The translations under genes and the position numbers were made by a program. Shown piece after piece: positions 49,531 to 64,000 of a stretch of 64,000 bases of DNA. Origin of the DNA: Candidatus Margulisiibacteriota bacterium (lineage in GTDB: Bacteria; Margulisbacteria; Marinamargulisbacteria; JBFWNS01); the NCBI GenBank assembly GCA_050250935.1, contig JBFWNS010000006.1, forward strand, positions 92,789 through 156,788, written 5' to 3'. The notes under the pieces are model-generated. The model was not told the origin of the DNA. It did no database searches and saw nothing but the letters and a program-made list of their open reading frames with translations. Numbering within the stretch: the first letter of the stretch is position 1; each line of letters begins with the position of its first letter.

Positions 49531-49570
49531 TGTAAAGAGCCCAATCTATGTACCAGTTAAAAATGGAGAG

Positions 49571-50362
49571 CTAAAAAGTGTTTAACAAAGCCCTTGGGGG
49601 GATCCACCCAAGGGCTTTGTGAGGTCGAAAGTGGTTGTAGTCATACATCCATTCGGAGGTTATGTCTCGGACATCGTCTAAGGTTCGAAAGATATACAGG
49701 TCTAAAATGTCCTCACGGTAAGTTTTGTTGAAGCGTTCAATAAAGGCGTTTTGTGTGGGTTTGCCTGGCTTAATGTGTTCCAGTTTGACGCTGTTGGATT
49801 CAGCCCAAGATTCCAACTTAACCGACATAAACTCACGTCCGTTGTCTACTCGAATTTCATCAGGTATACCCCGTTCTTCGGCAATTTGGTTTAAGACCCG
49901 AACCACCCGTTCTGCCGGAATCGAATAGTCAATTTCAATCGCCAACACTTCTCGGTTGTGGTTATCAATGACATTAAGCGTTCTAAACTTTCGGCCCATC
50001 TCCAAACTGTCCGACATAAAATCCATGGACCAGGTCCCATTCGCTTTTTGAGGGACTTCCAACCGTTTTGGCGTTCTATTGGGAAGGCGTTTTTTTGGCT
50101 TAATCCGGTGTTTTAATTTCAGCTCTCGGTAAATCCGTCGAACCCGCTTGTGGTTCCAATGGTGCCCTTGCAATTTCAGCCAATCATAGATCTTGCCAAA
50201 GCCCCATCGTAACTTGCTCTCGGCTAGCCGACTCACCACTTCGATGACTTCCCTGTCGCCTTCTCGAATCGATTTATACCCAAATGTCCCTCGGTTCACC
50301 CATACCAATTCACACACTCGCCGTATTGAATACCCTTGCGTTTTGAGAATATGGTGTACCAA
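49571..50362 (-). CDS. IS3-family transposase OrfB (DDE integrase domain)
   Basis: ...NVIDNHNREVLAIEID... and RVDNGREFMS are rve-domain motifs. Confidence 0.85.
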   Translation of the reverse strand: MVHHILKTQGYSIRRVCELVWVNRGTFGYKSIREGDREVIEVVSRLAESKLRWGFGKIYDWLKLQGHHWNHKRVRRIYRELKLKHRIKPKKRLPNRTPKRLEVPQKANGTWSMDFMSDSLEMGRKFRTLNVIDNHNREVLAIEIDYSIPAERVVRVLNQIAEERGIPDEIRVDNGREFMSVKLESWAESNSVKLEHIKPGKPTQNAFIERFNKTYREDILDLYIFRTLDDVRDITSEWMYDYNHFRPHKALGWIPPRALLNTF

Positions 50363-50382
50363 CTCCCGTTTCGCTTCGGGCT

Positions 50383-50670
50383 TTAGAGCTTTTTTTCGAT
50401 CAGCTGCTGCAACACTTCTTTATCCATACAGACTTCGGCATACATCTTTTTAAGTCGTCGGTTTTCTTCTTCCAAACCCTTTAGCTTTTTCATCATCGGC
50501 AGGTCCATCCCGCCATATTTTGACCGCCAGCTGTAGTAGGTCGGCTGGCTGACTTTGTACTCCCGACACAACTCTGCTACTGGCATCCCGCTTTCTCCAA
50601 GTTTTAATATCTTGAAGATCTCACCTTCGCTGAATTTGCTCCGCTTCATTCGCCACTCCTTTTTAAACAT
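50383..50670 (-). CDS. IS3-family transposase OrfA (HTH)
   Basis: MKRSKFSEGEIFKILKLGESGMPVAELCREYKVSQPTYYSWRSKYGG, then a leucine zipper. It ends at the slippery GAAAAAAAG (50391-50399 on the minus strand) used for -1 frameshifting into orfB. Confidence 0.85.
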   Translation of the reverse strand: MFKKEWRMKRSKFSEGEIFKILKLGESGMPVAELCREYKVSQPTYYSWRSKYGGMDLPMMKKLKGLEEENRRLKKMYAEVCMDKEVLQQLIEKKL

Positions 50671-50724
50671 AGGCTTTCGCCTATCTTATTTTATATTTTT
50701 CTGTGGCTCAATTTTAGGGGATGC

Positions 50725-50988
50725 TTACACAAAATCATTTTGTTCAGAAAGGCCGAGCTTTTTTGTGATGGCGGTTCGTATGGCACCTTCCGGTAAAAGA
50801 TTGGCGAAGAAAAATCTGACCGAATCACCTTGATGTGGTGCTTGTTGTAATGGCAAAGATACTGAAATGGGCTGTTTTTCCTGGTTTAGCCAGGATGGGT
50901 CATACTGTAAAAACCACTGTGCCCCTTCCTTCCCCAGGTGGGCGACCAATTTTTCTTCCCAAAAAACATACAGTAGCTGTTTAGACAC
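50725..50988 (-). pseudogene. HipA N-terminal subdomain (HipS-like) fragment, truncated exactly at the IS3 right end
   Basis: ...PISVSLPLQQAPHQGDSVRFFFANLLPEGAIRTAITKKLGLSEQNDF matches the HipA_N conserved core (SLPL...FF.NLLPEG..R......s..NDF/FDLL). The stop codon is contributed by the IS terminal TTACA. Confidence 0.6.
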
Positions 50989-51238
50989 GGGTTGACTTGG
51001 ATTGAATCACAATAAACAACCCCAATCCTTTTAAAATGCTAATCACTTTAGAGAGCGAAACCGTAGGCTTTCCGTTTTCCAACTCAGACAAAAAGCGAAC
51101 CCCCACATTACATAAAGCGGCGGTTTCGGCTTGTCTTAGCCCCATTCGTTTTCTGGTCGCTCGGATGATGAGGCCGAGTTCTTTGGGGGTGTCTATAATA
51201 GTCCCGTTCGGGAAAATAGTGGTGCTTTTGGTGTTCAT
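50981..51238 (-). CDS. hipB: XRE-family HTH protein (HipB-like antitoxin)
   Basis: LGLIIRATRKRMGLRQAETAALCNVGVRFLSELENGKPTVSL is a Cro/C1-type HTH. It overlaps the downstream HipA_N fragment by 8 nt. Confidence 0.65.
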   Translation of the reverse strand: MNTKSTTIFPNGTIIDTPKELGLIIRATRKRMGLRQAETAALCNVGVRFLSELENGKPTVSLSKVISILKGLGLFIVIQSKSTRV

Positions 51239-51347
51239 GTGGTTAATTTGTTCCCGATCGGGAATAATATAGCAGACTTAATTCAAAAAGGCTACTATTA
51301 TCCCGATCGGGAATATAAAAGTCCCTTAAAAAGCCCTTAGTCAGAGA

Positions 51348-52322
51348 CTAAACCTGATCACAAAGCACAGTCAGTAGTTGGGTCGCCTTTCCGTGCCGGG
51401 CCCATCCGTACATATCCTCTCGATTGCGAGGGGGTTGGCTTAAAATAGAGAGGAGCAATTGCCCATCGTGGCCAATGCAGAATGGGGCTTTGTATTCGCC
51501 GTGTGCGCCATTGAAGGTCACGATATAAACGGCTTTAATGTCGCTGAATTTTAGGTCTATTTGGTCTGGGTCTTGAGTCAGCAAAAGCCCGTTTGGTGAA
51601 ATCTCGGCTTCTTCAAGCGAGCTGTTGCGTTGAAAGATGACCGAGGGTGTTCCCATGCTGAGGAGAAGGTCGGTTTTGGTTTTCTGGAGTTCAGTTAACA
51701 TGTGGACCAGGGGTTCTGAAACGCTGGTTAATGGGCGTACTGAGTCAGTGGCTTTACTGAGCAAGGTTAGGACGTCTTCCATGGTTTTGCCGGTGGTTAG
51801 GCGGACAATATCGGGGGCATGAGGGTGGCCTAAAACCCAAGCGCTTACGCAACCATACTCTAAGGGAACGGGTGGGGTGGTGCTGGGGCTGGTGCTTTGC
51901 AAGAGTGGGGGTGTCTCAATGGGGTCGGCAGGGGTAAGGGTTGCCACGATGGTGCCGTTCGGATTACACAGGTAAATGGTTTGGGGTGTGGTTGACGAGA
52001 CATGGGCTGTGGCACCGGGATACGACCGCAGCAAAATACCCTCAAGCCAAAATTGACCTGTTACGTCAGAAATACCTGCTTTTACGTCGGCAGGAATACT
52101 ACGCATAAATGCTTTAAGCGGTGCTTCGCTTCCCCCAATAACCGTTCCCGATGTGCGGTATGACCCACTTCCTACCTGAACTTCGCCACTAACCATGGTT
52201 CCCTCTAAGGCCTTTAAAACACCCAAAAGAGAGGTCGGTGTAGCCGAAGCATCCAAGGTTGTAAGGGATTGTCCTAATGGGGAAACAGTGAGGGGTTGGG
52301 GCGTGGCAAGGACTTTGAACAT
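51348..52322 (-). CDS. Hypothetical Ser/Thr/Pro-rich protein (324 aa), first gene of the hipB-containing transcription unit
   Basis: No recognisable motif. Low-complexity STP-rich stretches (TTPQTIY..., QSTSPSTTPPVP). Confidence 0.4.
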   Translation of the reverse strand: MFKVLATPQPLTVSPLGQSLTTLDASATPTSLLGVLKALEGTMVSGEVQVGSGSYRTSGTVIGGSEAPLKAFMRSIPADVKAGISDVTGQFWLEGILLRSYPGATAHVSSTTPQTIYLCNPNGTIVATLTPADPIETPPLLQSTSPSTTPPVPLEYGCVSAWVLGHPHAPDIVRLTTGKTMEDVLTLLSKATDSVRPLTSVSEPLVHMLTELQKTKTDLLLSMGTPSVIFQRNSSLEEAEISPNGLLLTQDPDQIDLKFSDIKAVYIVTFNGAHGEYKAPFCIGHDGQLLLSILSQPPRNREDMYGWARHGKATQLLTVLCDQV

Positions 52323-52367
52323 GTGGGTATCCTTTAATGGTTGGGGATGTAAAAATTTTGTCTAGTT

Positions 52368-52423
52368 TATCATGTTGATACTATACAAGTCATTTCTCGG
52401 GTCATTTCCCGTGTCATTCGCCC
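52368..52423. promoter_or_regulatory. Palindrome TATCATGTTGATA plus three tandem imperfect 12-bp repeats (GTCATTTCTCGG/GTCATTTCCCGT/GTCATTCGCCC) upstream of the 324-aa/hipB operon
   Basis: Read directly at 52368-52380 and 52389-52423. The repeats lie between the pirin stop and the start of the 324-aa gene (52322, minus strand). Confidence 0.4.
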
Positions 52424-53337
52424 GGCAACGGAATAAACTCCCCCAAATCTGTTGGAATCTTGGGGAATTGTTGGGCTTTCCATCGTTTTTTGGCGTCTTC
52501 AATGCGGTCTTTGTCGCTGGCGACCAGGTTCCACCAAATGTGCCGAGGCCCGTCCATGGCAGCGCCGCCCAGCAGCATAAACCGAACGTGGGTATGGGCT
52601 GTGACATCCACCGATTTTTGGGGTTTTAGGACGATCATTTTGGGTTGGTCGGGGGCGGTGGGGCGATAACCGGCCACATCCAGATCGCCGGACAAAATAT
52701 ACAAGGCCCGTTCTTCAACCTCGGCAGGAATGCAGAGTTTTGAGCCGGGTTCTAGGGTAATGTCGGCATAAAGGGTTTCGTGGGGGAAGGGGGTGGGGGC
52801 TTTTTCGCCCAGCAACTGGCCGGTAATCAGGGTAATGCGGGTGCCGGTGTCTTGTAACTGGGGTAGCGTGGCGGTGTGGGTGAAGGTGGGCGTGCAGTCT
52901 TCCAAATGTTTGGGCAGGGCTAGCCAAGATTGAATGCCAAACAGGGCGCTGTCGTGTTGGCGCAGGGGTTGGGGTGTACGTTCGGAATGGACAATGCCGT
53001 TGCCTGCCGTCATCAGGTTCATTTCACCGGGTTTAATCACCATGTTGGTGCCCAGCGAATCCTGATGCTGAACCTCGCCCTTAAACAAATAGGTCAGGGT
53101 CGATAAGCCAATGTGTGGGTGAGGCCGAACGTCCAGCCCACTGCCCGTAATAAACTCCCCAGGCCCCATTTGATCCCAAAAAATAAAGGGACCCACCATT
53201 TGCCGATCTTTGGCCGGTAAGGCACGGTGAACCTGAAAATTCCCAATATCGCCCAGGCGCGGCAAAATGACCGTTTCGACATGCTCAAATGCGGCGCTGG
53301 CTTGATCGTCGGGGGTGGGGCAGTTGAAGTAGCTCAT
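52414..53337 (-). CDS. Pirin family (bicupin) protein
   Basis: ...DVRPHPHIGLSTLTYLFKGEVQHQDSLG... is the pirin N-terminal cupin with metal ligands. 307 aa. Confidence 0.8.
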   Translation of the reverse strand: MSYFNCPTPDDQASAAFEHVETVILPRLGDIGNFQVHRALPAKDRQMVGPFIFWDQMGPGEFITGSGLDVRPHPHIGLSTLTYLFKGEVQHQDSLGTNMVIKPGEMNLMTAGNGIVHSERTPQPLRQHDSALFGIQSWLALPKHLEDCTPTFTHTATLPQLQDTGTRITLITGQLLGEKAPTPFPHETLYADITLEPGSKLCIPAEVEERALYILSGDLDVAGYRPTAPDQPKMIVLKPQKSVDVTAHTHVRFMLLGGAAMDGPRHIWWNLVASDKDRIEDAKKRWKAQQFPKIPTDLGEFIPLPGE

Positions 53338-53838
53338 GGGGTTTTTGGGGCGAGTTCTGCCAATAAACTTTCAATATTCAACGCTTTGGTGAACATGTCT
53401 AGGCTGCCGTCGGCGCGGCTGGGCCATTGGTCTTTAGGGCGGTCCCAGTAGAGTTCGACGCCGTTTTGGTCTGGGTCGTTGAGGTATAAGGCTTCGGAGA
53501 CGCCATGGTTGCTGGCACCGGTCAGCGGATAGTTTTCGGCCATGAGTCGGGCCAGTACCGTGGCCAAGTCTTTGCGGGTGGGGTACAAAATGGCGGTGTG
53601 AAACAGGCCGGGGCTGGTGACGGGGGCAGGGTTCTGGCCTTGGCTGTACCAGGTATTTAACCCGATATGGTGGGTGGTAGCCGCCAGCCGACAAAAAAGC
53701 GGCCTGAGCCCCTATTTTTAGGGTGACTTCAAAGCCCAATAAATCCCGATAAAACCCCAACGCTCGGTCCAAATCAGCTACTTTCAAATGCACATGGCCA
53801 ATACGGGTTTGGGTGGGTAGGGTGTAGGGAGTGTTCAT
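53334..53838 (-). pseudogene. VOC/glyoxalase-family (CatE-like) gene disrupted by a +1 frameshift (extra C in a CACCACCC tract)
   Basis: The N-terminal part MNTPYTLPTQTRIGHVHLKVADLDRALGFYRDLLGFEV...AGGYH runs into the wrong frame. Frame +1 continues HHIGLNTWQSQGQNPAPVTSPGLFHTAILYPTRKDLATV... to the stop at 53334. The junction is at ~53667-53682. Confidence 0.6.
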
Positions 53839-55040
53839 GAGTGTCCTCCTAATGATTTTGGATTTTTCTCCACCAAACTCCACACCCCCAATACCCCCAA
53901 CAGCGGAAGTGGCAATAAGACCAGGGTTTTCCAGCCCACGGCAAACAGTAACCATCCTGCCCCTAGGCTGGCGATGGCTTGGGTGCCGAAGACCAGCAGG
54001 TCGTTCAGACCTTGGGCTTTAAACCGTTCCGGACCGGTGAAGTCTACTGAAATTCGGGTGGAGCCGGCTAGGTATAAAAAATTCCAACCAATGCCCAATA
54101 GGACCAGGGCTATCCAATAGCTGGGCAGTTGGCGGCTTAAAAATGCGCAAAGGATGCTGGCGAAAAAAATAAAAATGCCTGCCAGTGTGAGCTTTTTGAG
54201 CCCGATTTTAGCAAGCAGGAGGCCACTGAATAGGGAGGGTAAAAACATGGCGATGATGTGGCTTTGAATAATGAAGGTGGTGTTCGGCTTCGAAAAATGA
54301 CAGAGGGTGTGCATTTGAAGTGGGGTTGCCGACATGAGCAAGGTCATGGTGGCAAAGGCGGTGATCCCGCTTAGTGCAGCCAGTAAAAACTGGGGCTGGG
54401 TTGTGATAGGTGAGGCCACTGCCAAGGGGGTTTCTCCACCGCGGCTTTGTCTTGGGGGTGGTGTGGGGGTGATGCCTAGTAAAAGCCCGCCACTGACGAT
54501 GAGCCCTAGGCCCAACAGCAGCAAGGAGCCCAGGTAATCGGTTGTGAATAAAGTCTGTCCATACAGGGTCATACCAGGACCAATGATGGCGGAAAAGAGA
54601 CTGAACATTAAAACCCAAGAGTGAACCAGGGCTTTTTCGGTGTTGGTTTGCTCGGCGGCGGTAAATCGAATCTGATTGGTAAATGCAATGCCGCCTCCCG
54701 ACACCAAATTCCCCAAACAAAACACGCTAAACTGGGTCTTGATTAACCCCACGCCCAAAAGACCAATTCCCAATAGGCTGAGCAGTAGGCCTGCCAAATG
54801 CCCTTTTTTGCGACCGATTTTGGAAAAAATCCAGGTTGAAACCGGACTGCAGGCGGCTACCCCAACAATCATGGCGGCCATGGGCAGGGTGGACAGTACC
54901 AAGGTTGGTGCCAACTCGACGCCCTTAAGCCCGCTGATTAAAAACAAAACCGGACCGGTAGAGCCTGCCAATGCTTGAACCAGGAGCAAGCATAAAAGGT
55001 TTCGGTTAAACGTTGGCAGCCAGTGCATCCTTAGAACCAA
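53835..55040 (-). CDS. MFS transporter (12 TMS)
   Basis: 401 aa and hydrophobic, with MFS motif-A-like GxxxxKIGRKKG. Its stop overlaps the VOC start (4 bp). Confidence 0.7.
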   Translation of the reverse strand: MVLRMHWLPTFNRNLLCLLLVQALAGSTGPVLFLISGLKGVELAPTLVLSTLPMAAMIVGVAACSPVSTWIFSKIGRKKGHLAGLLLSLLGIGLLGVGLIKTQFSVFCLGNLVSGGGIAFTNQIRFTAAEQTNTEKALVHSWVLMFSLFSAIIGPGMTLYGQTLFTTDYLGSLLLLGLGLIVSGGLLLGITPTPPPRQSRGGETPLAVASPITTQPQFLLAALSGITAFATMTLLMSATPLQMHTLCHFSKPNTTFIIQSHIIAMFLPSLFSGLLLAKIGLKKLTLAGIFIFFASILCAFLSRQLPSYWIALVLLGIGWNFLYLAGSTRISVDFTGPERFKAQGLNDLLVFGTQAIASLGAGWLLFAVGWKTLVLLPLPLLGVLGVWSLVEKNPKSLGGHS

Positions 55041-55669
55041 TAATCCGGGTAATGCCGGTTTTTGACAGTGTTGTTGGTGAGGTAGGCAATGGCAACCATG
55101 ATCACCGCTCCCAATAAGACCGGCGATAAAATATAGCGAAAGCCCAGCGAATAAATCCGCTCACCGCCAATAATGGCAATGAGTGCGGTTGCTCCACCGG
55201 GCGGGTGCAGGGTTTTGGTCAGGTGCATGCCTGCAATCGCACACGAAACCGCCAAAGCCGATCCCAACCAAATGGGCTGGGGCAGCGCCAAATGAATACA
55301 GACCCCACAAAGGGCCGAAATTACATGCCCACCAATGATATTTCGAGGCTGGGCCAACGGGCTTCGCGGTGCCCCATAAGCCAAAACTGCAGAGGCTCCG
55401 AATGACCCGATCATGATTAATAAAGAGGGTTCAAACAGGTGTAACAGTCCCAAAGCCGCAATCCCAATAAACGAAAACACCCAAGAAAACAAAATCTCAT
55501 GCCAGTTGGCAAAGGGAATGAGGGGCCAGTTGTGTTTCTTTTTGCGGTCCTGCCGGTTTTTTTCCAAGAGTGTTACAAGTTCAGCAACGTCATCCACCGT
55601 GATATCCACAAACCCATCCATTTTGCTGATGGCGGTTTCAATTTCTGTTTTGGTGTAAGGGGTTGGCAT
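55031..55669 (-). CDS. HPP family membrane protein
   Basis: ...MHLTKTLHPPGGATALIAIIGG... is the diagnostic HPPGGAT motif. It has a soluble N-terminal extension. Confidence 0.7.
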   Translation of the reverse strand: MPTPYTKTEIETAISKMDGFVDITVDDVAELVTLLEKNRQDRKKKHNWPLIPFANWHEILFSWVFSFIGIAALGLLHLFEPSLLIMIGSFGASAVLAYGAPRSPLAQPRNIIGGHVISALCGVCIHLALPQPIWLGSALAVSCAIAGMHLTKTLHPPGGATALIAIIGGERIYSLGFRYILSPVLLGAVIMVAIAYLTNNTVKNRHYPDYWF

Positions 55670-55779
55670 GGGGTTTAAAGTTTAATACTGGGGTTCTGGA
55701 TAGGTCAAAGGTTGGAAAGTAAGGTATTCTTTCAGTTTTCTTTCGGTGGTGGTTCTGGATAGTGATCCATGGTGTTTCA

Positions 55780-55986
55780 CTAGTGGTCATAATTTATAAG
55801 GGGGTTTTGGTCGCGGTGTGTTGGGTTAAATCGATGGTAATATTTTTTGGGTTGGGCTAGGGCATAGGTTGTGGGCTCGCTTGGGGATGTGGCGGCTGTG
55901 CACCCCATGAGGGGTGTCAGGAAAAGACCTATCAAAAAAAAGAGCAGGGTTCTGTTGAGAGGGTTGATTTTCATGGGTTTTAACAA
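55780..55986 (-). CDS. Small putative lipoprotein (lipobox L-M-G-C)
   Basis: LLFFLIGLFLTPLMGCTAATSP is a signal peptide with a lipobox. Confidence 0.35.
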   Translation of the reverse strand: MLKPMKINPLNRTLLFFLIGLFLTPLMGCTAATSPSEPTTYALAQPKKYYHRFNPTHRDQNPLINYDH

Positions 55987-55998
55987 TTAAATTGTGCT

Positions 55999-56397
55999 TT
56001 ATTTTAGAGAATGTAGACCGAACATATTGCCTTCGGAATCAAAAACAATCGAGATAAACCCATATTGGCCAATCGAAAATTTGGTTTTTTCGACTTTTCC
56101 GCCGTTGGCTTGGATTCGAGATTCTTCCACCACACAATCGTCGCAAGAAAAATAAACCAGAACGCTGTTTTTTCCTGCAGACATGCCAGGCATTTTAACC
56201 AGGGCACCACCGGCGCCGTACAGGTTCATGTCGGCTGGGAAGGACCACATTTCGAAGCCAGGAATACCGGCATCGGATTCTCCGATTCGGTCGAAGGACA
56301 CTTTGAAGACCCCTTCGTAGAAGCGTTTGGCTCTGGCCATATCCTCTACATAAATTTCGAACCAACCCACTGGATTTTTCGCAACTGTATTTGACAT
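55999..56397 (-). CDS. VOC family protein (glyoxalase/bleomycin-resistance fold)
   Basis: 132 aa: ...GWFEIYVEDMARAKRFYEGVF... with paired beta-alpha-beta-beta-beta modules. Confidence 0.65.
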   Translation of the reverse strand: MSNTVAKNPVGWFEIYVEDMARAKRFYEGVFKVSFDRIGESDAGIPGFEMWSFPADMNLYGAGGALVKMPGMSAGKNSVLVYFSCDDCVVEESRIQANGGKVEKTKFSIGQYGFISIVFDSEGNMFGLHSLK

Positions 56398-56459
56398 ATC
56401 AAACTCCTTTCAAATTTTTCATCAGTTTATCGGTTTGTTGTGACAACCGTGTGTCATAG

Positions 56460-57392
56460 TTAAACATAGTTTTTTGCAAGATCTATGGCGGTTTTTTGGA
56501 GTTGTTTGGCCAATCGAAGTGGGGATTCGACCACCACGTTGCTGCCAAAGCCCAGCAAGATCGACAAAATCCAGTCGCCGTCCGGAACGGTGGTTTGGAT
56601 GCGGCCAACCTCGCCGTCCCAGGTAATTTGCTCGAAACCCAACCAATCCCCAATGTTTACCCAAATGGCCTTGGTAAACCGCAGCCGAAGTGTGATTTGT
56701 TTTTCGGGAAAAAGACAGTTGGGCTTATAGGTTTCGTAGGTTTGGTTTTTTCGCGTAAACGGTTCTGGTGTTTGGCCGGTGTCGAACATGCGGGAGAGTC
56801 GAAACAAGCGATAGTCTTTTTTGGCGGTGCAAAAGGCAAACAAATACCAACTGTTGCCCTTTAATACCAAGGTCATGGGTTCCACAGTTCTGGCCGATTT
56901 TTCGTTTTTAAGATTCAGATAGTCGAAGCGAATGCGATAGCCGTCCTCGATGGCTTGGGCAACCACTTTGAGGGTGTCTTGGCCTTTTTTTCGGGCCAGC
57001 CATTCTTGGGGATCAATCACAATGTGTTGAAGCTTGGTTTGAATTTGGGACTGTTTGTCGGGGGTGATCAAGCTTTTGATTTTATCCAGGGTTTTCTGGA
57101 GTTTTTCAGACTCGTTTTTTTGTAGCAGGGCATCCAAGCCCGAGATTAAATGGGCAATGTCGTCGGCGGTTAAAAGCCGGCGGTCCAGCACATAGTCCGG
57201 ATCCAGTTCCCATCCCCCGTTTTGGCCTTGAAACGAGATCACGGGCATACCCGAAACAGACAGGGTTTGTATGTCCCGGTAAATGGTGCGGGACGACACC
57301 CCAAATTCTGTGGCCAACGCCTGGGTTGTCCATCGGCGTCGGGACAGCAGCTTAATGGCTATCGCCAAAAGACGGTCTAATCGAATTCCCAT
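56460..57392 (-). CDS. WYL-domain transcriptional regulator (HTH-WYL-WCX, YafY-like)
   Basis: N-terminal HTH MGIRLDRLLAIAIKLLSRRRWTTQALATEFGVSSRTIYRDIQTL, a central WYL region (...KGNSWYLFAFC...DYRLFRLSRM), and a C-terminal WCX. Confidence 0.75.
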   Translation of the reverse strand: MGIRLDRLLAIAIKLLSRRRWTTQALATEFGVSSRTIYRDIQTLSVSGMPVISFQGQNGGWELDPDYVLDRRLLTADDIAHLISGLDALLQKNESEKLQKTLDKIKSLITPDKQSQIQTKLQHIVIDPQEWLARKKGQDTLKVVAQAIEDGYRIRFDYLNLKNEKSARTVEPMTLVLKGNSWYLFAFCTAKKDYRLFRLSRMFDTGQTPEPFTRKNQTYETYKPNCLFPEKQITLRLRFTKAIWVNIGDWLGFEQITWDGEVGRIQTTVPDGDWILSILLGFGSNVVVESPLRLAKQLQKTAIDLAKNYV

Positions 57393-57494
57393 GGGGGTAT
57401 GGTAGCAAATAAAATAAAATCGGGGATCTAAAGCGAGCCTTGCCATGGATTTTGCAACCAGAACCAACCGGATTGTTCAAGAACCCACCATCGG

Positions 57495-57914
57495 GTGTAT
57501 TCTTGGGCCATGTCTTGCTACTGTGGTCATCCCGACCCCTATTTAGAGTGTTGCGGCCAATATGTGGTGTTTGGCCAAAAACCAGAAACGGCCGAAAAAC
57601 TCATGCGGTCTCGGTATTCGGCTTATGCCACCGGGGCGGTTCCCTATTTGATTCAAACCACCCACCCTGACTTTCGAAATTCCACTTTAGGGGTTTCGAT
57701 TTCCACATGGATAGCCCAAGTGAGTGCTTGGCGGGGACTAACCATTGTGTCGGTCCAAAAAGGCGGGCCAAAAGACGAGATCGGATGGGTGAACTTCCAA
57801 GCCACCTTTGTCCAAGATGGGCAAGAACAGCGTTTGCAAGAGCGGTCTCGGTTTAGCCGGTTTTTGGGGGAATGGGTTTATGAGGATCGGGAGGAGAAGT
57901 GGGCAAGTTCTTAA
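57495..57914 (+). CDS. YchJ family (UPF0225) protein with a SEC-C-like metal-binding motif
   Basis: CYCGHPDPYLECCGQY; an internal YSAYATGAVPYLIQTTHP motif; a second ...WVYEDREE region. Confidence 0.6.
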   Translation: MYSWAMSCYCGHPDPYLECCGQYVVFGQKPETAEKLMRSRYSAYATGAVPYLIQTTHPDFRNSTLGVSISTWIAQVSAWRGLTIVSVQKGGPKDEIGWVNFQATFVQDGQEQRLQERSRFSRFLGEWVYEDREEKWASS

Positions 57915-57949
57915 CGCTTGGATCGTTTTAACAACACTAAGGAGTTCAA

Positions 57950-58441
57950 ATGCAAAAAATCGTCACGTTTTTATGGTTTAACCATCAGGCCAAAGAGGCT
58001 GTGGAGTTGTATGTATCCCTGTTTGAAAATGCCAAAATAACCAACACCTCTTATTTTACAGACTCGGTAGCCAAAATGGCTGGAAAGAAGCCAGGCGAGC
58101 TTTCTACCATCGATTTTGAACTGAATGGCCAGGCGTTTACTGCCTTGAATGGTGGTCCCATGTTTCGCTTTAACGAGGCCATCTCTATCCAAGTCCACTG
58201 CAAAACCCAAGCCGAGATCGACCGGCTGTGGGAGGCCCTGTCCAAAGGCGGCGAAATCAGTGCTTGCGGCTGGCTGAAGGATGCCTATGGTCTCTCCTGG
58301 CAGATAGTTCCCGAAAGCCTAGACCCCATGCTCCGAGACCCCGACCCTGCCAAAGCAGACCGGGTGAGCGCTGCCATGTTGGGGATGGCGGGCAAATTGG
58401 ATTTGGGGGTGTTGGAGAGGGCTTATTGGGGGGAAGCCTAG
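57950..58441 (+). CDS. PhnB-like VOC-superfamily protein (3-demethylubiquinone-9 3-methyltransferase domain)
   Basis: MQKIVTFLWFNHQAKEAVELYVSLFENAKI...IDFELNGQAFTALNGGP...CGWLKDAYGLSWQIVP. Confidence 0.65.
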   Translation: MQKIVTFLWFNHQAKEAVELYVSLFENAKITNTSYFTDSVAKMAGKKPGELSTIDFELNGQAFTALNGGPMFRFNEAISIQVHCKTQAEIDRLWEALSKGGEISACGWLKDAYGLSWQIVPESLDPMLRDPDPAKADRVSAAMLGMAGKLDLGVLERAYWGEA

Positions 58442-59217
58442 TCCGCAGGTTTTTCTGCTTGAATCCGAAGGCGTTTATAATCGGCGTACCAGGCCCCATT
58501 TTGGTACAATGCTGGTCGGGTTTTGGTCTCAATAAAGCGGATCATTTCATTCCGAATGTTGGCTGGAATGCCTTCAAAAAAGGGTGATGCAAACATATTC
58601 AGCCAATGTCGAAGCCCCAAATCGCCGTCATCTAATACGGTTGGGCGATCAAAATAGGCAACCTTTCTGACCGTAAAGTGAGCTTGTTCCAGCAGGCTGG
58701 TGTAGTCTGCAACGGTTGGGAAATACCAGGGATTTTTTTCTTGATTCTCTTTATAGCCAAACTGTTCCAAAGCCTGATTGATTCCATTTACAATTTGTCC
58801 AATATTACGATGTCCTCCAAACTCTATAACCAACCGTCCACCGGGTTTTAATGCTCGAAACATGGAATCGGCTGCTGCCCGGGCCTCTTTGACCCAATGC
58901 AAAGCAGCATTCGAGAAAATGGCATCAAATTCATCTTGATAACCCAGTTCCCGTACGTCTCTGATTTGAAAGTTGAGCTCTGGAAATTTTTGTTGTGCTG
59001 CAGCAATCATGAAATCGGACTGATCAATTCCCAGAACCCGAGCGCCTAGGTCTGCTATTTCTTTGGTCAAATCCCCAGTCCCGCATCCGACATCACAAAT
59101 CTTTTCATTTTTGACAGGGTTCAATTCCTGTACCAACGATTTGCCATAGGCGGTATTAAAGCCGTGATGTTGGTCATAAAGCTGGGCATCCCAGTGGTTT
59201 GTTGGGTGGGTGGTCAT
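58438..59217 (-). CDS. Class I SAM-dependent methyltransferase, trans-aconitate 2-methyltransferase (Tam)-like
   Basis: WDAQLYDQHHGF, motif I VCDVGCGTGDLT, ...IFSNAALHWV. Confidence 0.7.
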   Translation of the reverse strand: MTTHPTNHWDAQLYDQHHGFNTAYGKSLVQELNPVKNEKICDVGCGTGDLTKEIADLGARVLGIDQSDFMIAAAQQKFPELNFQIRDVRELGYQDEFDAIFSNAALHWVKEARAAADSMFRALKPGGRLVIEFGGHRNIGQIVNGINQALEQFGYKENQEKNPWYFPTVADYTSLLEQAHFTVRKVAYFDRPTVLDDGDLGLRHWLNMFASPFFEGIPANIRNEMIRFIETKTRPALYQNGAWYADYKRLRIQAEKPAD

Positions 59218-59260
59218 GGTTTTTAATCCTCAACGAGATAGTCTCTATTGCAGACAGATT

Positions 59261-59539
59261 TTAAGCAGCTTTTGCAATTTCCAATGCTTCGTACTCTGGA
59301 AATACAATAATAGCCGGATGAACATTAAAGGCTTTTGCCAAAAGCTCGGCTCTTTTTTTACCAATATCCACTTTATTGTGCTCTAAAAGACTAATATTGC
59401 TAGAACTAATACCACATCGCAAGGCCAACTCTTCTTGCGTCCATCCCATCAATTCCCTCAACATACGAATAACTTCTCCTGTCGTAAGCGTCGCGTGCGA
59501 TTGTGCATTCATAAATTCGTTTTCTTTTAAGTATTTCAT
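59261..59539 (-). CDS. XRE-family HTH antitoxin (HigA-like)
   Basis: GEVIRMLRELMGWTQEELALRCGISSSNISLLEHNK is a Cro/C1 HTH. It lies immediately downstream of a RelE/ParE-family toxin gene. Low GC. Confidence 0.6.
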   Translation of the reverse strand: MKYLKENEFMNAQSHATLTTGEVIRMLRELMGWTQEELALRCGISSSNISLLEHNKVDIGKKRAELLAKAFNVHPAIIVFPEYEALEIAKAA

Positions 59540-59557
59540 TAGCGACTCCTTCTCTTT

Positions 59558-59830
59558 TTAATAGTTATGGGGTGTAATTTCCAAAACATAAATTGTAATG
59601 ATGTCTTGATTGATTGAATAAATCACTCGATATTGAAGATTAAGTCGAGATGATCTTTGTCCTCTTCTATCCCCAACGAGCTTTTCATCATGAAATCCAG
59701 GAAATTGTTTTAATTTTTCAGGGCCGTGCCTAAATACAATGTCTTTCCAAAGCTCATATTTTTTCAATACAGCAATTGGGATTTTTTTACAAATCTTCTC
59801 GAGGTTCCTATGTTCTTTGATATGCCACAT
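59558..59830 (-). CDS. RelE/ParE-superfamily toxin (HigB-like; toxin-first gene order)
   Basis: ...GDRRGQRSSRLNLQYRVIYSINQDIITIYVLEITPHNY has the RelE/ParE C-terminal pattern. 90 aa. Preceded by an operator-like IR. Confidence 0.55.
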   Translation of the reverse strand: MWHIKEHRNLEKICKKIPIAVLKKYELWKDIVFRHGPEKLKQFPGFHDEKLVGDRRGQRSSRLNLQYRVIYSINQDIITIYVLEITPHNY

Positions 59831-59835
59831 ATATT

Positions 59836-59855
59836 AAAAATAATAACTTATTAAA
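59836..59855. promoter_or_regulatory. Inverted repeat ACTTATT-N6-AATAAGT upstream of the toxin gene (candidate operator)
   Basis: Read directly. Located 6-25 bp upstream of the higB-like start in an AT-rich region. Confidence 0.35.
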
Positions 59856-59963
59856 TATAATAAGTACACAAGAGAAACCCAGGAAGATATTCTAGGAATG
59901 TTGAGCAGTATGGCTTCCTAGTTTAAGAGGCTATAGAACAGGCATTATTCTTTCGCTATTCTT

Positions 59964-60608
59964 TCAATTTTCTTTCATCTTTTTTGACCAGCAAAAGGAT
60001 ATACTGCCCCCAATTAATGCCCACATCATATCCTTTTGGGTATCCCATACATCTCCTTGAGCTCCCAAAAAATCGTCAGCTTTAGTACCGGTCCATAGTG
60101 CAACTTGCCATTCAAAAAGCTCATAAGCTGCACTCAAGGCGAGTGCCATACATAGGGATAAAAAAATCACCCATGTTCTTTGTTTAACGCCTACTTTACG
60201 GACCAAGATATCTTGAGCCAATAAGGCCGGAACAAAACCTTGAAAAAAATGTCCAACCTTGTCGTAATTATTGCGGGTCCATCCCATTATCGGCTTTAAT
60301 TGATCAAACAAGGGAACGCGAGCGTAGGTATAATGTCCGCCAATCATAAGAACGCAAGCATGTATTAGCAGTACCCAATACAAATAGCGAGGCAGAGGAT
60401 AAGATTTGTATGTCCAAAATAAAAGAGGTAATCCGATAAAGGTAGGCAGGACTTCCAAAAACCATGTGAAGTGATCGTAAGCACCTATGTAAGACCAGAT
60501 TAGTGTGAAGACATATCCCAATAGTAATAACGTGGCTTCTCGTTTTGACATAGCAGGAGTATAGCTCAGCTTAACACTCATGTCTTTGACCCTAGTTAAC
60601 GACTCCAC
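59964..60608 (-). CDS. YjdF-family (DUF2238) inner-membrane protein
   Basis: Multi-TM with the ...GGHYTYARVPLFD...NYDKVGHFFQGFVPA... pattern of the YjdF family. The start is uncertain (several in-frame Met). Confidence 0.5.
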   Translation of the reverse strand: MESLTRVKDMSVKLSYTPAMSKREATLLLLGYVFTLIWSYIGAYDHFTWFLEVLPTFIGLPLLFWTYKSYPLPRYLYWVLLIHACVLMIGGHYTYARVPLFDQLKPIMGWTRNNYDKVGHFFQGFVPALLAQDILVRKVGVKQRTWVIFLSLCMALALSAAYELFEWQVALWTGTKADDFLGAQGDVWDTQKDMMWALIGGSISFCWSKKMKEN

Positions 60609-60616
60609 CCCATTAA

Positions 60617-60650
60617 CCCCCTCACCACAACGCAGTGAGGGGATTTTTTG
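60617..60650 (+). terminator. Rho-independent terminator-like hairpin (CCCCTCAC-N10-GTGAGGGG + ATTTTTTG), plus-strand oriented, between two minus-strand genes
   Basis: An 8-bp GC-rich stem followed by a T6 run on the plus strand. A second small hairpin GGGCTTCGGAGCCC lies at 60654-60667. Confidence 0.4.
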
Positions 60651-60666
60651 CTCGGGCTTCGGAGCC

Positions 60667-63600
60667 CTATAGTTTCCAATCGATCGTCAAGCGGATGGGG
60701 ACGTTTTTCAGATCGGGGGTGCCTAGGGAATAGGCTTCGAGTCGGGCACTGAGATTTTGGGAAATGGCATAGATGGTACCTACCCGTAGCAGTAGGGTGC
60801 TGTCTGAAGTGGACGAATCTGAAAATGTCTGTGCTGTGTTCGCAAGTTTATAGGAAGCGGATTGTCCAGAGAGTAGCGAATGTCCACTGACGCCGACTTC
60901 AGCAAAGGTACGGAGGTTGTCCGTATCAAAAACAAGGCCAGCACTGGTGTTCCAGATTCCAGAAACCATCGTGCGGGAATCCCAACGGAACTGGTCGCCT
61001 TCGGAATAAGCGTCTTGGTATTCGTAAACGGTGGAGACGTCGCCTGCAAGGCGTAAACTCAACCCATTTCCAAGCGCGATGGGACGTTTCAAAGATACGC
61101 CCAGCAAGGCTTCCGAGCTTTGGGTGTTCCCATGAATGGTTTGGCTTCCTGATTCTGAACCAAAATTGGTCAAAATGGTTCTAGAGGTATCCAGCCATCT
61201 TTTTCCAACGCCAATGCGCCATGACATATCGAGATCCCATAGTTTGGCAGGCCTTGATTGATAGCCAAGACGTAGACCCTTATCGGTTATCTTTTGAGCG
61301 TCATCGTTTTCAATGGCGAGTTGTGATTGCTGAACATCCAGCCAGAAAGAACCGGAAGGATCTAGTGTGAAGCCGGTGTTGATCCCTTGCGCTGCGAGGC
61401 TATATCTCGCAGTTGATTGTGCATTACGGATGCTGTTTTCTAGATAGGGGCTTACCCAAAAAGAAGTGGGGTTTTCAGGTAAGACACGCAGCAGGCTGTT
61501 GGTCCGCGCTGCGATCCAATCGTTGGCGATATCCAGTGCATCTGCGTTGGCCGCGAGTATCAGATTATTGTTTTGAGCAAACGCGCGGGTAGGGCTAGCG
61601 TTGTCGGTTACCGTCCATGTTCCTTGGGTTGCGAAGATATAAGAGCGTTTGCCAAGGTCAATCGTGAGGTCTGCGGTGTCATGGGTAAACAGGGTTCCGG
61701 TAATCAAGGTCCCACTTTTTAAGGCCAGTTTATTGGTAGAGCCCGATGCAAAATAGACCGCGTAGGCTTGGGATGCATCAGAAGCTTTGGCAGAAACGCG
61801 ACCGTTAATCGTTACAGAATTGGTTTCTCCAGAAACATAAAGGGCTGTTGCGGTACCGTTAGTAGCCGTAGCCCGTACATCCCCATTCACGTCGATGGTG
61901 ATCTGATTCTGGTCACCACTTTGATGGATCGCAAAGGCATTGCCATTGCTGGAATCGGTATAGACTTTACCAGAGACAGAGACGAGGTTATCCTGCCCCC
62001 CTTCTTGCTTGATGCCATAGCCAAGGGTTGTGCTGCCAGATGCGGAAACCATCATCTGACCGGTAACCGTGACGGTATTGCTTCCCCCACTGCCACTGGT
62101 TCCGCTAGAACCTGCTACGCCATCGGCACCCGCCACACCCGCAGAGCCGGTCAAACCACTGGCACCATCCACACCGGCCGCGCCATTAGCGCCAGCAACA
62201 CCATTGTCGCCAGCACCTGAATTGTCAGACAAACCGTCTGTACCCGAGAATCCATTCGTGCCGGAGGTGCCATTTTCAGTGTCTCCGATACCGCCAACTC
62301 CACCCATACCTTCGCTCCCACCCGTTCCGCCAGTGCTGCCAATACCGCCAGCACCGCCATTCCCGCCGTCACCGCCATTGCCGCCAAAATCGCCATCGCC
62401 GCCAGCGCCTCCAAAACCACCATTACCGCCAGCGCCTCCAAAACCACCACTACCGCCAGCACCAGCAGCGCCACCTGTTCCGCCAACGCCGCCAGATCCG
62501 CCAAGGCCGCCAATACCGCCAGCGCCGCTAACACCGCCAGAACCAGCTGCGCCGCCAACACCGGCCGCACCGCCCGTGACAACTTGTTTTATTCCATAGG
62601 CTGTTGCTTCCCCGGAAGTCGAGGTTGCTGAAGCAGAGATATGCCCAGAAAGCGTGACAACGTTGTTTCCACTGCCCCCTGTGCCACCATTACCGCCCAC
62701 ACCGCCAGTGCCGCCAATCCCTCCAGTACCACCAACCCCGCCTGCGCCGCCAGCACCGCCATCGCCGCCAGCACCACCGGCACCGCCAGCGCCACCAACA
62801 CCAGCAGCACCGCCAGCACCGCCATTGCCACCATCACCACCATTGCCGCCATTGGTGCCTGCAAATCCAGCGCCGCCAGCGCCGCCAGAACCGCCAGCGC
62901 CGCCGTTCCCGCCATTGCCGCCGTCGCCGCCAGCACCCCCCGTACTGCCAGCGCCACCATCGCCGCCAACGCCGCCGGCACCGCCAGCACCACCGGCGCC
63001 GCCAGCACCACCAGCACCGCCCGAGCCGCCAGCACCGCCGGTAGCCGATTGTTGTATCCCATAAGCAATAGCCGTATTGGCGCTGGTAGCCGTGGCTGTC
63101 ACCGTGTGAGAGAGGGTAAGGATGTTACTCCCCGTGCCGCCGCTGGCACCGTTTGTCCCATTTTGGCCATTGGCCCCAGTACCGCCAGTACCGCCACTGG
63201 CCCCGCTTCCGCCAAAAGCCCCACTTTCGCCACTATCCCCAGTTCCTCCAACGCCGCCATTGGTTCCGTCTCCTCCCGCTGTGCCATCACCTCCATCATT
63301 GCCATCGGGTGACACACCGGTTCCGTCTTGCCCAGGCATGCCTGCAGCGCCAGCAGTGCCATGGTCCCCAGCGACGCCACTAGACCCATTGGCCCCAGCC
63401 GTAGTCGCATCTGCCCCAGCGACGCCACTGGTTCCATTGGCCCCAGCCGTTCCCGTAGCTCCAGTTGTTCCAGTAGCCCCAGCTGTTCCGCTTTCACCAA
63501 CAGCAGTTTGTCCTATTCCGATGGCCGTTTCAGCGGTGCTGGACTGGTCTTCAGTGGAAATATACGTGTTGGATGTTGGGGTATCCGTTCCATAGATTGT

Positions 63601-63735
63601 AACCGGTGTTAATAACAAGAGGATCAAACACAGTTTGATATAAACAAATTTATCAAAATAGTTAATCGAGACAGTGGCTTCTGTACCCTTTGGTTGGGCA
63701 CTAGCCATCCTAGATTTGGTTGATTTTGTAGACAT
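60667..63735 (-). CDS. Giant (1022 aa) glycine-rich autotransporter-like surface protein: signal peptide, three Gly-Gly-X repeat modules, C-terminal beta-barrel
   Basis: N-terminus has a TM/signal (FVYIKLCLILLLLTPVTIYG). Residues ~60-520 are (GGX)n tracts such as GGAGGSGGAGGAGG..., each followed by a conserved ~25-aa segment (..TLSGHISASATSTSGEATAYGIKQ / ..LSHTVTATATSANTAIAYGIQQ / ..VTGQMMVSASGSTTLGYGIKQ). The C-terminal ~280 aa have alternating aromatic beta-strands ending ...RLTIDWKL. Confidence 0.65.
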   Translation of the reverse strand: MSTKSTKSRMASAQPKGTEATVSINYFDKFVYIKLCLILLLLTPVTIYGTDTPTSNTYISTEDQSSTAETAIGIGQTAVGESGTAGATGTTGATGTAGANGTSGVAGADATTAGANGSSGVAGDHGTAGAAGMPGQDGTGVSPDGNDGGDGTAGGDGTNGGVGGTGDSGESGAFGGSGASGGTGGTGANGQNGTNGASGGTGSNILTLSHTVTATATSANTAIAYGIQQSATGGAGGSGGAGGAGGAGGAGGAGGVGGDGGAGSTGGAGGDGGNGGNGGAGGSGGAGGAGFAGTNGGNGGDGGNGGAGGAAGVGGAGGAGGAGGDGGAGGAGGVGGTGGIGGTGGVGGNGGTGGSGNNVVTLSGHISASATSTSGEATAYGIKQVVTGGAAGVGGAAGSGGVSGAGGIGGLGGSGGVGGTGGAAGAGGSGGFGGAGGNGGFGGAGGDGDFGGNGGDGGNGGAGGIGSTGGTGGSEGMGGVGGIGDTENGTSGTNGFSGTDGLSDNSGAGDNGVAGANGAAGVDGASGLTGSAGVAGADGVAGSSGTSGSGGSNTVTVTGQMMVSASGSTTLGYGIKQEGGQDNLVSVSGKVYTDSSNGNAFAIHQSGDQNQITIDVNGDVRATATNGTATALYVSGETNSVTINGRVSAKASDASQAYAVYFASGSTNKLALKSGTLITGTLFTHDTADLTIDLGKRSYIFATQGTWTVTDNASPTRAFAQNNNLILAANADALDIANDWIAARTNSLLRVLPENPTSFWVSPYLENSIRNAQSTARYSLAAQGINTGFTLDPSGSFWLDVQQSQLAIENDDAQKITDKGLRLGYQSRPAKLWDLDMSWRIGVGKRWLDTSRTILTNFGSESGSQTIHGNTQSSEALLGVSLKRPIALGNGLSLRLAGDVSTVYEYQDAYSEGDQFRWDSRTMVSGIWNTSAGLVFDTDNLRTFAEVGVSGHSLLSGQSASYKLANTAQTFSDSSTSDSTLLLRVGTIYAISQNLSARLEAYSLGTPDLKNVPIRLTIDWKL

Positions 63736-63873
63736 AAGTCTCCCCCGTTTTTATAAATTTGGTTATATTTTCTTGAATGAAAAGCTCAGCGAGTTAATGC
63801 CCTATAAAAAAATTTGTTAAACGTATTTTTCAGGGATTCTAATTTAACGATTCTAGAGCCCTAAGAATGCTTT

Positions 63874-64000
63874 TGTAAAGAGCCCAATCTATGTACCAGT
63901 TAAAAATAGAGAACTAAAAAGTGTTTAACAAAGCCCTTGGGGGGATCCCCCCAAGGGCTTTGTGCGGTCGAAAATGGTTGTAGTCATACATCCATTCGGA
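63874..64000 (-). mobile_element. Second, diverged copy of the same IS3-family element (left end plus 3' end of orfB), continuing beyond the window
   Basis: 63874-64000 aligns to 49531-49657 with ~5 mismatches in 127 bp. Same orientation as copy 1. The orfB C-terminus would end at ~63914. Confidence 0.8.

Follow-up and report, generated by a model that had tools for sequence, protein, structure and literature searches.

A predicted type Va autotransporter whose short β-helix passenger carries three very long glycine-rich insertions

The window analysed here is a 64,000-nt stretch of contig JBFWNS010000006.1, and its subject is the minus-strand gene at 60667–63735, which encodes a glycine-rich protein of 1022 residues. 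We conclude that this protein is very probably a classical autotransporter of the monomeric type Va, with three Gly insertions specific to its lineage, and that its passenger would have the surface role proposed below. It is a variant of a known secretion system and not a new system. In the predicted models, the passenger is a short right-handed β-helix, interrupted among its N-terminal rungs by three very long Gly-rich insertions and followed by a linker helix and a 12-strand translocator β-barrel. An earlier reading made from the letters alone (the sequence-only reading) had proposed an autotransporter with a PE-PGRS-like passenger for the same open reading frame (ORF), and the coordinates, strand and length that it gave were recovered unchanged on re-checking.

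Predicted translocator barrel and β-helix passenger

To describe the C-terminal half of the protein, we used AlphaFold2 (AF2) with a multiple sequence alignment (MSA) of the family. The resulting model of aa 553–1022 has a predicted local distance difference test (pLDDT) score of 93.3 and a predicted template-modelling (pTM) score of 0.88, and contains short three-strand rungs, one α-helix that presumably sits in the pore of the modelled barrel, and twelve long strands. In a Foldseek comparison with the PDB, the best eight matches are all type Va translocators, as are 10 of the top 11. Specifically, the matches include EstA (1.6e-24), NalP (TMt 0.79), AaaA, EspP and AIDA-I, with BrkA and Hbp lower down.

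An exhaustive phmmer search with aa 553–1022 against 1.84 billion cluster representatives returned 65 relatives, of which the closest (P0001) is a 141-aa fragment with 65% identity and the others are 23–33% identical. The Pfam autotransporter model PF03797 is matched by 7 of the 50 aligned relatives (E≤0.01) and missed in the remaining 43. Two relatives, P0008 and P0009, align to the query barrel at E≈1e-16 and match positions 2–253 of the 255 positions of PF03797 at 3e-17 and 2e-18, respectively. In addition, the family profile matches the solved autotransporters 9qe7 and Vag8. The autotransporter β-barrel called by the sequence-only reading is thus upheld, both by the pLDDT-93 model and by transitive homology via P0008 and P0009 to PF03797. 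We assign the barrel with high confidence to a divergent subfamily that PF03797 mostly misses, comprising about 65 cluster representatives, the majority of which come from metagenomes (ENA, Logan and TARA; P0002–P0065 in alignment A1). Because PF03797 largely misses this subfamily, autotransporter censuses in uncultured lineages undercount. Residues 523–583 at the C-terminus of P0009 also match PF24653, a cyanophage outer-membrane-protein-like β-barrel, hinting at a link between that phage outer-membrane protein (OMP) family and autotransporter barrels.

The passenger contains three Gly tracts, each trailed by a conserved segment of ~25 aa, as the sequence-only reading had noticed. These segments, NILTLSHTVTATATSANTAIAYGIQ, NVVTLSGHISASATSTSGEATAYGIKQ and NTVTVTGQMMVSASGSTTLGYGIKQ, all end in A/GYGI(Q/K)Q. 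The full-length AF2 model confidently folds each into a three-strand rung (aa 204–231, 358–386 and 553–578; pLDDT 80–93), and a rung alignment shows that they share the pattern N-x-(V/I)-T-(V/L)-x-G-...-A-x-(G/A)-(I/V)-x-x with the later rungs, four to six of which come after the third segment. The segments had been taken as the anchors of three tandem modules; this description stands but its meaning does not, as the anchors are canonical β-helix rungs and the tracts are insertions between rungs. Rungs 1–3 have 36–54% mutual identity in protein (54% for rung 1 and rung 2) and about 60% in DNA, and any duplication is therefore old. Furthermore, Foldseek matches the passenger part to the β-helices of UpaB, pertactin, Vag8 and Hap. 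We infer from the model that rungs 1 and 2 stack onto the contiguous core of aa 553–730.

Both ends of the protein agree with what had been read from the letters. The proposed N-terminal signal anchor corresponds to a 19-aa hydrophobic core (aa 30–48 by hydropathy; AF2 helix at aa 27–41), after which the chain continues with ...IYG and then TD, between which a putative Sec signal peptide would be cleaved. The Trp-containing terminus is also present, the protein ending in ...IRLTIDWKL. The alternating hydrophobic pattern I-R-L-T-I-D-W-K-L is kept at this end; most relatives end in F, and P0001 also ends in WKL.

Several points weigh against the assignment of the protein to type Va. The search of the C-terminus with PF03797 that the sequence-only reading had proposed gave no match, either to the whole protein or to its C-terminal 277 or 387 aa, although hits were accepted up to E 10. 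The remaining OMP models of Pfam and NCBIfam likewise lack a direct match to the whole protein, whose only matches in these collections are the sub-threshold Collagen and SclA ones, both to tract 1. The last residue is Leu and not the usual Phe or Trp of the OMP β-signal. The stacking of rungs 1 and 2 on the core is read solely from high pLDDT. All three tracts have pLDDT ~30 in the full-length model, with no secondary structure and no packing, and this low confidence is no demonstration of disorder because the tracts are without MSA coverage. The evidence consists of sequence and predicted structure.

The gene is, moreover, a near-orphan, and its known copies are limited to one in the same strain and the 141-aa fragment P0001. 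Positions 62781 down to 51001 are 100% identical over 11.8 kb to the same-strain Logan contig L001 (SRR27751816_505112), which corresponds to ~50701–62781 of the window and has one end inside Gly tract 2 (at 62781) and the other inside an IS3 copy. Because both repeats break short-read assembly, 62782–63735, which holds tract 1 and part of tract 2, is supported by one assembly only. An exact look-up of the full protein sequence gave no record, a word-indexed search of 5.8 billion proteins gave no homolog of the C-terminal 397 aa, and a scan of 185,579 representative genomes gave no relative of aa 553–1022. A protein scan of metagenome contigs returned no related locus, and a degenerate DNA pattern for RTFAEVGVSG returned 3 chance matches in metagenome contigs, none with a tblastn relation.

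Glycine-rich tracts and competing explanations

Gly makes up 255 of the 1022 residues, and the tracts make up about 60% of the passenger. The sequence-only reading had the passenger consist almost entirely of (GGX)n; the Gly tracts bear this out in part, but G-X-Y prevails in tract 1 and at the end of tract 3, and ~260 residues are ordinary β-helix. The region of aa 50–552 is acidic (1 K/R against 30 D/E), and beyond the signal region the protein has no Cys. The 421 tract residues contain two Pro, both in tract 1, six aromatics (F/W/Y) and no hydrophobic doublets. In tracts 2 and 3, the X position of GGX is occupied by A (24), N (8), S (7), V (6) and D (6). The Gly register is fixed for up to 26 triplets, and the longest pure G-X-Y run is 13 triplets. 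At the DNA level, GC content rises from about 0.5 to 0.61–0.74 over 62150–63350 and GC skew becomes strongly negative there, as GGN/GCN codons read from the opposite strand would produce.

Among the 65 relatives, none carries even one (GGX)≥3 run, and the maximum Gly fraction in any 60-aa window is 0.27. By this sequence comparison, the Gly tracts are lineage-specific insertions between β-helix rungs. A search with the rung–tract–rung region (aa 196–580) gave 113 weak compositional matches without a BLASTP-alignable segment; these are unrelated GGX-cassette proteins (Lachnospiraceae-type, myxobacterial and one PE protein, P0103), and neither the barrel nor the rung anchors occur among them. 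PDB sequence matches of the tracts are to collagens, 8zxl fibril proteins and a snow-flea antifreeze protein (AFP), with bias scores above net scores in all and one Gly per triplet aligned. Since there is no alignable homology and the matches are dominated by bias, the tracts resemble PE-PGRS, collagen and RTX in composition and periodicity and not by homology. In accordance with this, the strict RTX nonapeptide, GRPLI, GGA(I/L/V), GGxxP and RGD were sought in the protein and none was found.

It is possible, though we think it unlikely, that the tracts are folded, as antiparallel polyglycine-II (PGII) helices in flat 'PGII sandwich' lobes on the β-helix stalk, an arrangement compatible with the autotransporter assignment. 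The long fixed Gly register fits such a fold, a PGII-sandwich structure has been predicted for PGRS domains, whose composition is the same (PMC9436101), and conservation at the peptide level exceeds that at the DNA level. Tract 2 also aligns weakly across the whole 81-aa snow-flea AFP chain 2pne (E 0.009; query 41–117 to chain 3–79), a match that is driven by bias like the other PDB matches, which count against the fold. The AF2 model, though made without MSA coverage, shows no packing in the three tracts, and edge turn motifs are essentially absent, as the counts of hydrophobic doublets and aromatics indicate. The fuller proposal, that the three tracts are folded PGII-sandwich lobes between rungs, convergent with mycobacterial PGRS domains, in a bacterium near Margulisbacteria, appears slightly less likely again. 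If true, the protein would represent a convergent PGRS-like surface module on a different secretion platform, and would offer a natural E. coli-compatible scaffold for making and solving a PGII-sandwich domain, which has been experimentally resistant in mycobacteria. By comparison, we reject a collagen-like triple helix in the G-X-Y parts (aa 80–140 and 495–550), which would make the protein a trimeric stalk adhesin like Scl1/2 or BclA and has a very small probability in our estimate. The Pfam collagen model PF01391 matches aa 80–138 weakly (E 0.0068), at 16.6 bits against a 27.2-bit cut-off, and NCBIfam SclA (NF038330) matches at E 8.5e-4, with 19.1 against 400 bits; collagens in the PDB also match, again with one Gly per triplet and bias above score. 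Pro is scarce, the pure G-X-Y runs are short and there is no trimerisation domain. Furthermore, the barrel is of the 12-strand monomeric type Va, not of the trimeric type Vc with 4 strands per chain.

The sequence-only reading had described the DNA as near-identical units and the protein as possibly phase-variable, and neither claim held. Tandem Repeats Finder reports periods of 9, 18 and 27 nt only, in arrays over about 1.3 kb, with matches of 64–81%; no exact repeated word exceeds 24 nt, and perfect tandem repetition reaches at most 2.4 × 9 nt. The same peptide triplet is written with many synonymous 9-mers (TGG in 8 versions over 8 occurrences, AGG in 6 versions over 20), which argues for an old array under selection for its peptide. 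In the tracts, 85% of the Gly codons are GGC/GGT; in housekeeping genes of the window, GGG accounts for 37%. The 1.4 kb of tracts contain one G-run of ≥6 (maximum G-run 6), while recoding them with housekeeping usage gives a mean of 11.2 and a minimum of 2 in 1000 simulations, none of which was as low as the observed count. Repeat-length changes stay in frame because all periods are multiples of 9 nt and, together with the avoidance of frameshift-prone G-runs by the Gly codons, this contradicts ON/OFF phase variation. No long homopolymer or short tandem repeat occurs in the promoter or the 5′ coding sequence, where the longest runs are T7 and G5. It is therefore improbable that the locus is a contingency locus, in which slipped-strand mispairing in the GCC/GGC array would cause ON/OFF switching or rapid change in antigen length, in spite of the extent of the array, the collapse of short-read assembly inside tract 2 and the precedent of the pertactin (GGXXP)n region, which varies in copy number (PMC1459169). 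The gene looks built at the codon level to keep its frame and is not an ON/OFF contingency gene. Repeated words as long as 24 nt could recombine occasionally and so alter the length of the tracts in frame. In the protein, genome and metagenome collections searched, no second allele was found, the only other copy being that of the same strain on L001.

We also considered that the repeat might be non-coding in this frame, either as part of a plus-strand Pro-rich protein or as a non-coding array, or that the gene might be a decaying or misassembled remnant in an IS-flanked island. Opposite-strand PPxPP ORFs at 62069..62599 and 62654..63064, the IS3 flanks and the unconfirmed part of the gene could be taken to suggest this. 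On the other side, one 3069-nt frame joins the signal region, three correctly placed rungs and a confident helix and barrel; the pattern at synonymous sites is that expected if selection acts on the Gly frame; and everything from 62781 downward is confirmed by the independent assembly. Such an origin is accordingly highly improbable. Coding by the antisense Pro-rich frames is rejected, since these are the expected mirror of GGN/GCN codons and the ORFs are short and without start context. Across 62069–63595 (+) there are several ORFs of 130–220 aa, of PPxPP-type Pro-rich or Ala/Thr-rich composition, which are mirror artefacts of the GGN/GCN array.

Flanking elements, neighbouring genes and host

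The two flanking IS3 copies mentioned by the sequence-only reading were both found, copy 1 by its domain matches and copy 2 by terminal identity (Table 1). The translation of copy 2 ends in ...SEWMYDYNHFRPHKALGGIPP and a stop codon, and the element itself ends in ...TTTACA, 138 bp upstream of the autotransporter ATG. The two copies have the same orientation and lie about 13–13.5 kb apart, enclosing the autotransporter gene and about a dozen other genes. The latter encode a DUF2238 membrane protein, a RelE/YoeB-like and helix-turn-helix (HTH) pair, two methyltransferase-fold proteins and a YchJ-like protein, together with a WYL regulator, glyoxalase-like, HPP, MFS and pirin proteins and two unannotated ORFs. 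The GC content at third codon positions is 0.40–0.43 for 58438–59217 and 59964–60608, compared with 0.56–0.61 in housekeeping genes. Judged from these sequence features, the stretch between the IS3 copies resembles a composite transposon or an acquired island, with the autotransporter as part of it.

Upstream of the gene, the IS3 end may supply the −35 element of a hybrid promoter facing the autotransporter gene, a suggestion based on consensus match only. Downstream, the 58 nt that separate the stop codon from the DUF2238 gene can form a stem-loop that is not a canonical intrinsic terminator, because it has no U-tract; it may be an mRNA-stabilising or repetitive extragenic palindromic (REP)-like element.

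The sequence-only reading had also placed the gene next to toxin–antitoxin (TA) modules. At 59261–59830 (−), a 90-aa ORF lies upstream of a 92-aa HTH_3 protein in the toxin-first order of HigB/HigA. The toxin-like and HTH pair is thus present, but the toxin family is not assigned, as the 90-aa ORF matches YoeB and RelE at 22.8 and 19.5 bits, both sub-threshold. It is plausible from the arrangement that the pair is a TA module, which the family cut-offs do not establish. Two further minus-strand ORFs have no Pfam or NCBIfam match: an orphan of 857 aa at 42148–44721, which was considered as a paralog of the autotransporter and dismissed as no similarity was found, and one of 324 aa at 51348–52322, which is also called as a gene on L001.

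The host is tentatively placed near Margulisbacteria by a single sequence marker, UvrC (4437–6188). Its best non-self relatives are 42–53% identical, and those with names belong only to Candidatus Margulisbacteria and Candidatus Marinamargulisbacteria. A pattern-limited scan of GTDB species representatives gave best UvrC matches of 31–38% identity, and 100% matches occur only in Logan assemblies (SRR27751816). By these matches, the host is without a close relative among sequenced genomes. Rfam and tRNA scans of the window provided no taxonomic markers.

Table 1. Positions in the window of the autotransporter gene, its predicted parts and the flanking elements (aa, residues of the 1022-aa protein)
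Feature	Position	Strand	Details
Type Va autotransporter coding sequence with Gly-rich insertions (assignment probable)	60667..63735	−	Complete, 1022 aa + stop, ATG start (ORF list)
Long N-terminal signal region (putative), aa 1–49	63589..63735	−	Basic N-region and hydrophobic core FVYIKLCLILLLLTPVTIYG; hydropathy
Gly tract 1, aa 80–203, 124 aa	63127..63498	−	39% Gly; mostly G-X-Y rich in T, A, S, N, D, then GGX; 0 K/R, 10 D/E
β-helix rung 1 (first 'anchor'), aa 204–228	63052..63126	−	AF2, three strands at aa 204–231, pLDDT 82–91
Gly tract 2, aa 229–357, 129 aa	62665..63051	−	61% Gly; nearly pure (GGX)n; 0 K/R
β-helix rung 2 (second 'anchor'), aa 358–384	62584..62664	−	AF2, three strands at aa 358–386, pLDDT up to 93
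Gly tract 3, aa 385–552, 168 aa	62080..62583	−	48% Gly; GGX with some Phe, then G-X-Y; 0 K/R, 11 D/E
Contiguous β-helix passenger core (predicted), aa 553–730	61546..62079	−	Rung 3 (third 'anchor', aa 553–578) and later rungs
α-helical linker before barrel (predicted), aa 732–751	61483..61542	−	AF2 helices aa 732–735 and 737–751; helix 180–199 of the C-terminal model
12-strand translocator β-barrel (predicted), aa 760–1022	60670..61458	−	Ends ...IRLTIDWKL
Shine-Dalgarno-like GGGGGAG	63740..63746	−	4 nt before ATG, read from sequence
Promoter-like TTTACA-18-TAGAAT	63850..63879	−	10/12 σ70 consensus matches; −35 formed by the terminal 6 nt of the IS3 end (63879–63874)
Stem-loop	60601..60666	−	58-nt spacer, stop codon to DUF2238 gene; −36.5 kcal/mol, z −4.9, 0/200 shuffles as stable
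IS3-family copy 1	~49531..50670	−	orfB 49571..50362, orfA-like 50383..50670; rve, rve_3, HTH_21; NF033516 207.9 bits
IS3-family copy 2, 3′ end, runs off window	63874..64000	−	96% identity over 127 nt to 49531–49657

Proposed export and comparison with known systems

For the type Va autotransporter that we propose, Sec would export the protein via its long signal region, BAM would insert the barrel with the helix of aa 732–751 in its pore, and the passenger would be threaded out in the C-to-N direction. The contiguous rungs (aa 553–730) would fold first as a nucleus, rung 2 and then rung 1 would stack on it, and the three acidic Gly tracts would protrude as large excursions on the cell surface, at the distal end of a short stalk. 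According to the summary of Kang'ethe & Bernstein 2013 in PMC4174580, EspP efficiently secretes a disordered Gly/Asp-rich RTX segment of >200 residues, for which acidic residues are critical. The acidic composition of the tracts fits this tolerance for acidic passengers that are disordered. The protein has no catalytic domain, and its most likely role is to coat the surface or to act as a spacer, an adhesin or an antigenic module.

The immediate impact of a single near-orphan sequence from an uncultured organism, known from sequence alone, is modest. Nevertheless, under this reading, >420 acidic, Lys/Arg-free and probably non-β-helical residues must cross the type V pathway interleaved with folding rungs, which makes the protein a natural case bearing on a debated point, namely what powers the export of passengers: their vectorial folding, or charge and other interactions. 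In addition, PGRS-like GGX arrays are not confined to mycobacteria and occur as cassettes in unrelated surface proteins, and the array described here would ride on a secretion platform functional in E. coli.

The predicted barrel superposes on those of the solved type Va translocators NalP (1uyn/1uyo), EstA (3kvn), AIDA-I (4mee), Hbp (3aeh), EspP (2qom/3slo) and BrkA (3qq2), with only 8–14% identity. Unlike them, the protein has no PF03797 match, ends in Leu, has a short core and carries three Gly tracts of 124–168 aa.

Two other families of Gly-rich or repeat-bearing surface proteins were compared and rejected. RTX proteins (GGxGxDxUx) are also Gly/Asp-rich, acidic and secreted unfolded; however, the protein has no strict nonapeptide, its six loose GG.G.D motifs lack the hydrophobic position and PF00353 (HemolysinCabind) does not match, in agreement with the sequence-only reading, which had set the repeats apart from RTX. 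A chlamydial Pmp is likewise excluded, with no GGA[ILV], two incidental FxxN and no PF02415 match. The snow-flea AFP (2pne/3bog), a polyglycine-II bundle, shares Gly-X-X/GGX triplets with the tracts, but is an 81-aa disulfide-bonded protein, whereas the tracts have no Cys.

The mycobacterial PE_PGRS proteins resemble tracts 2 and 3 in their GGA/GGN/GGS/GGD arrays with a similar X spectrum. PGRS domains are predicted as PGII sandwiches with hydrophobic or aromatic turns along one edge, and surface exposure with a decoy or adhesin role is plausible for both them and the protein described here (PMC9436101). Of the PE-PGRS likeness claimed by the sequence-only reading, the triplet composition stands and homology does not: the PE domain (PF00934), the GRPLI linker and the turn motifs are missing, and no database match is alignable. 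Membership of this family is therefore rejected and the likeness is compositional only. Moreover, PE_PGRS proteins use type VII/ESX-5 secretion, whereas the protein described here would use type V, in a host that is diderm and non-mycobacterial.

The closest functional analogies would be two regions of classical autotransporters, the (GGXXP)n region of pertactin (PMC1459169) and the Gly-rich repeats of IcsA (PMC9769942). In Bordetella pertactin, the (GGXXP)n and (PQP)n regions are short, whereas the tracts described here reach 124–168 aa each; the protein also lacks the GGxxP and RGD motifs. The repeats of Shigella IcsA (VirG) are roughly 32–34-aa units. IcsA is likewise a type Va protein in which an N-terminal part of the passenger is Gly-rich, repeated and functionally important, the repeats (aa 117–307) being a subregion on the AlphaFold passenger model that includes Cys130 (PMC9769942). 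In comparison, the tracts of the protein described here are triplet-periodic and of low complexity, contain up to 61% Gly, are modelled at pLDDT ~30 and lie between the rungs of the predicted β-helix.

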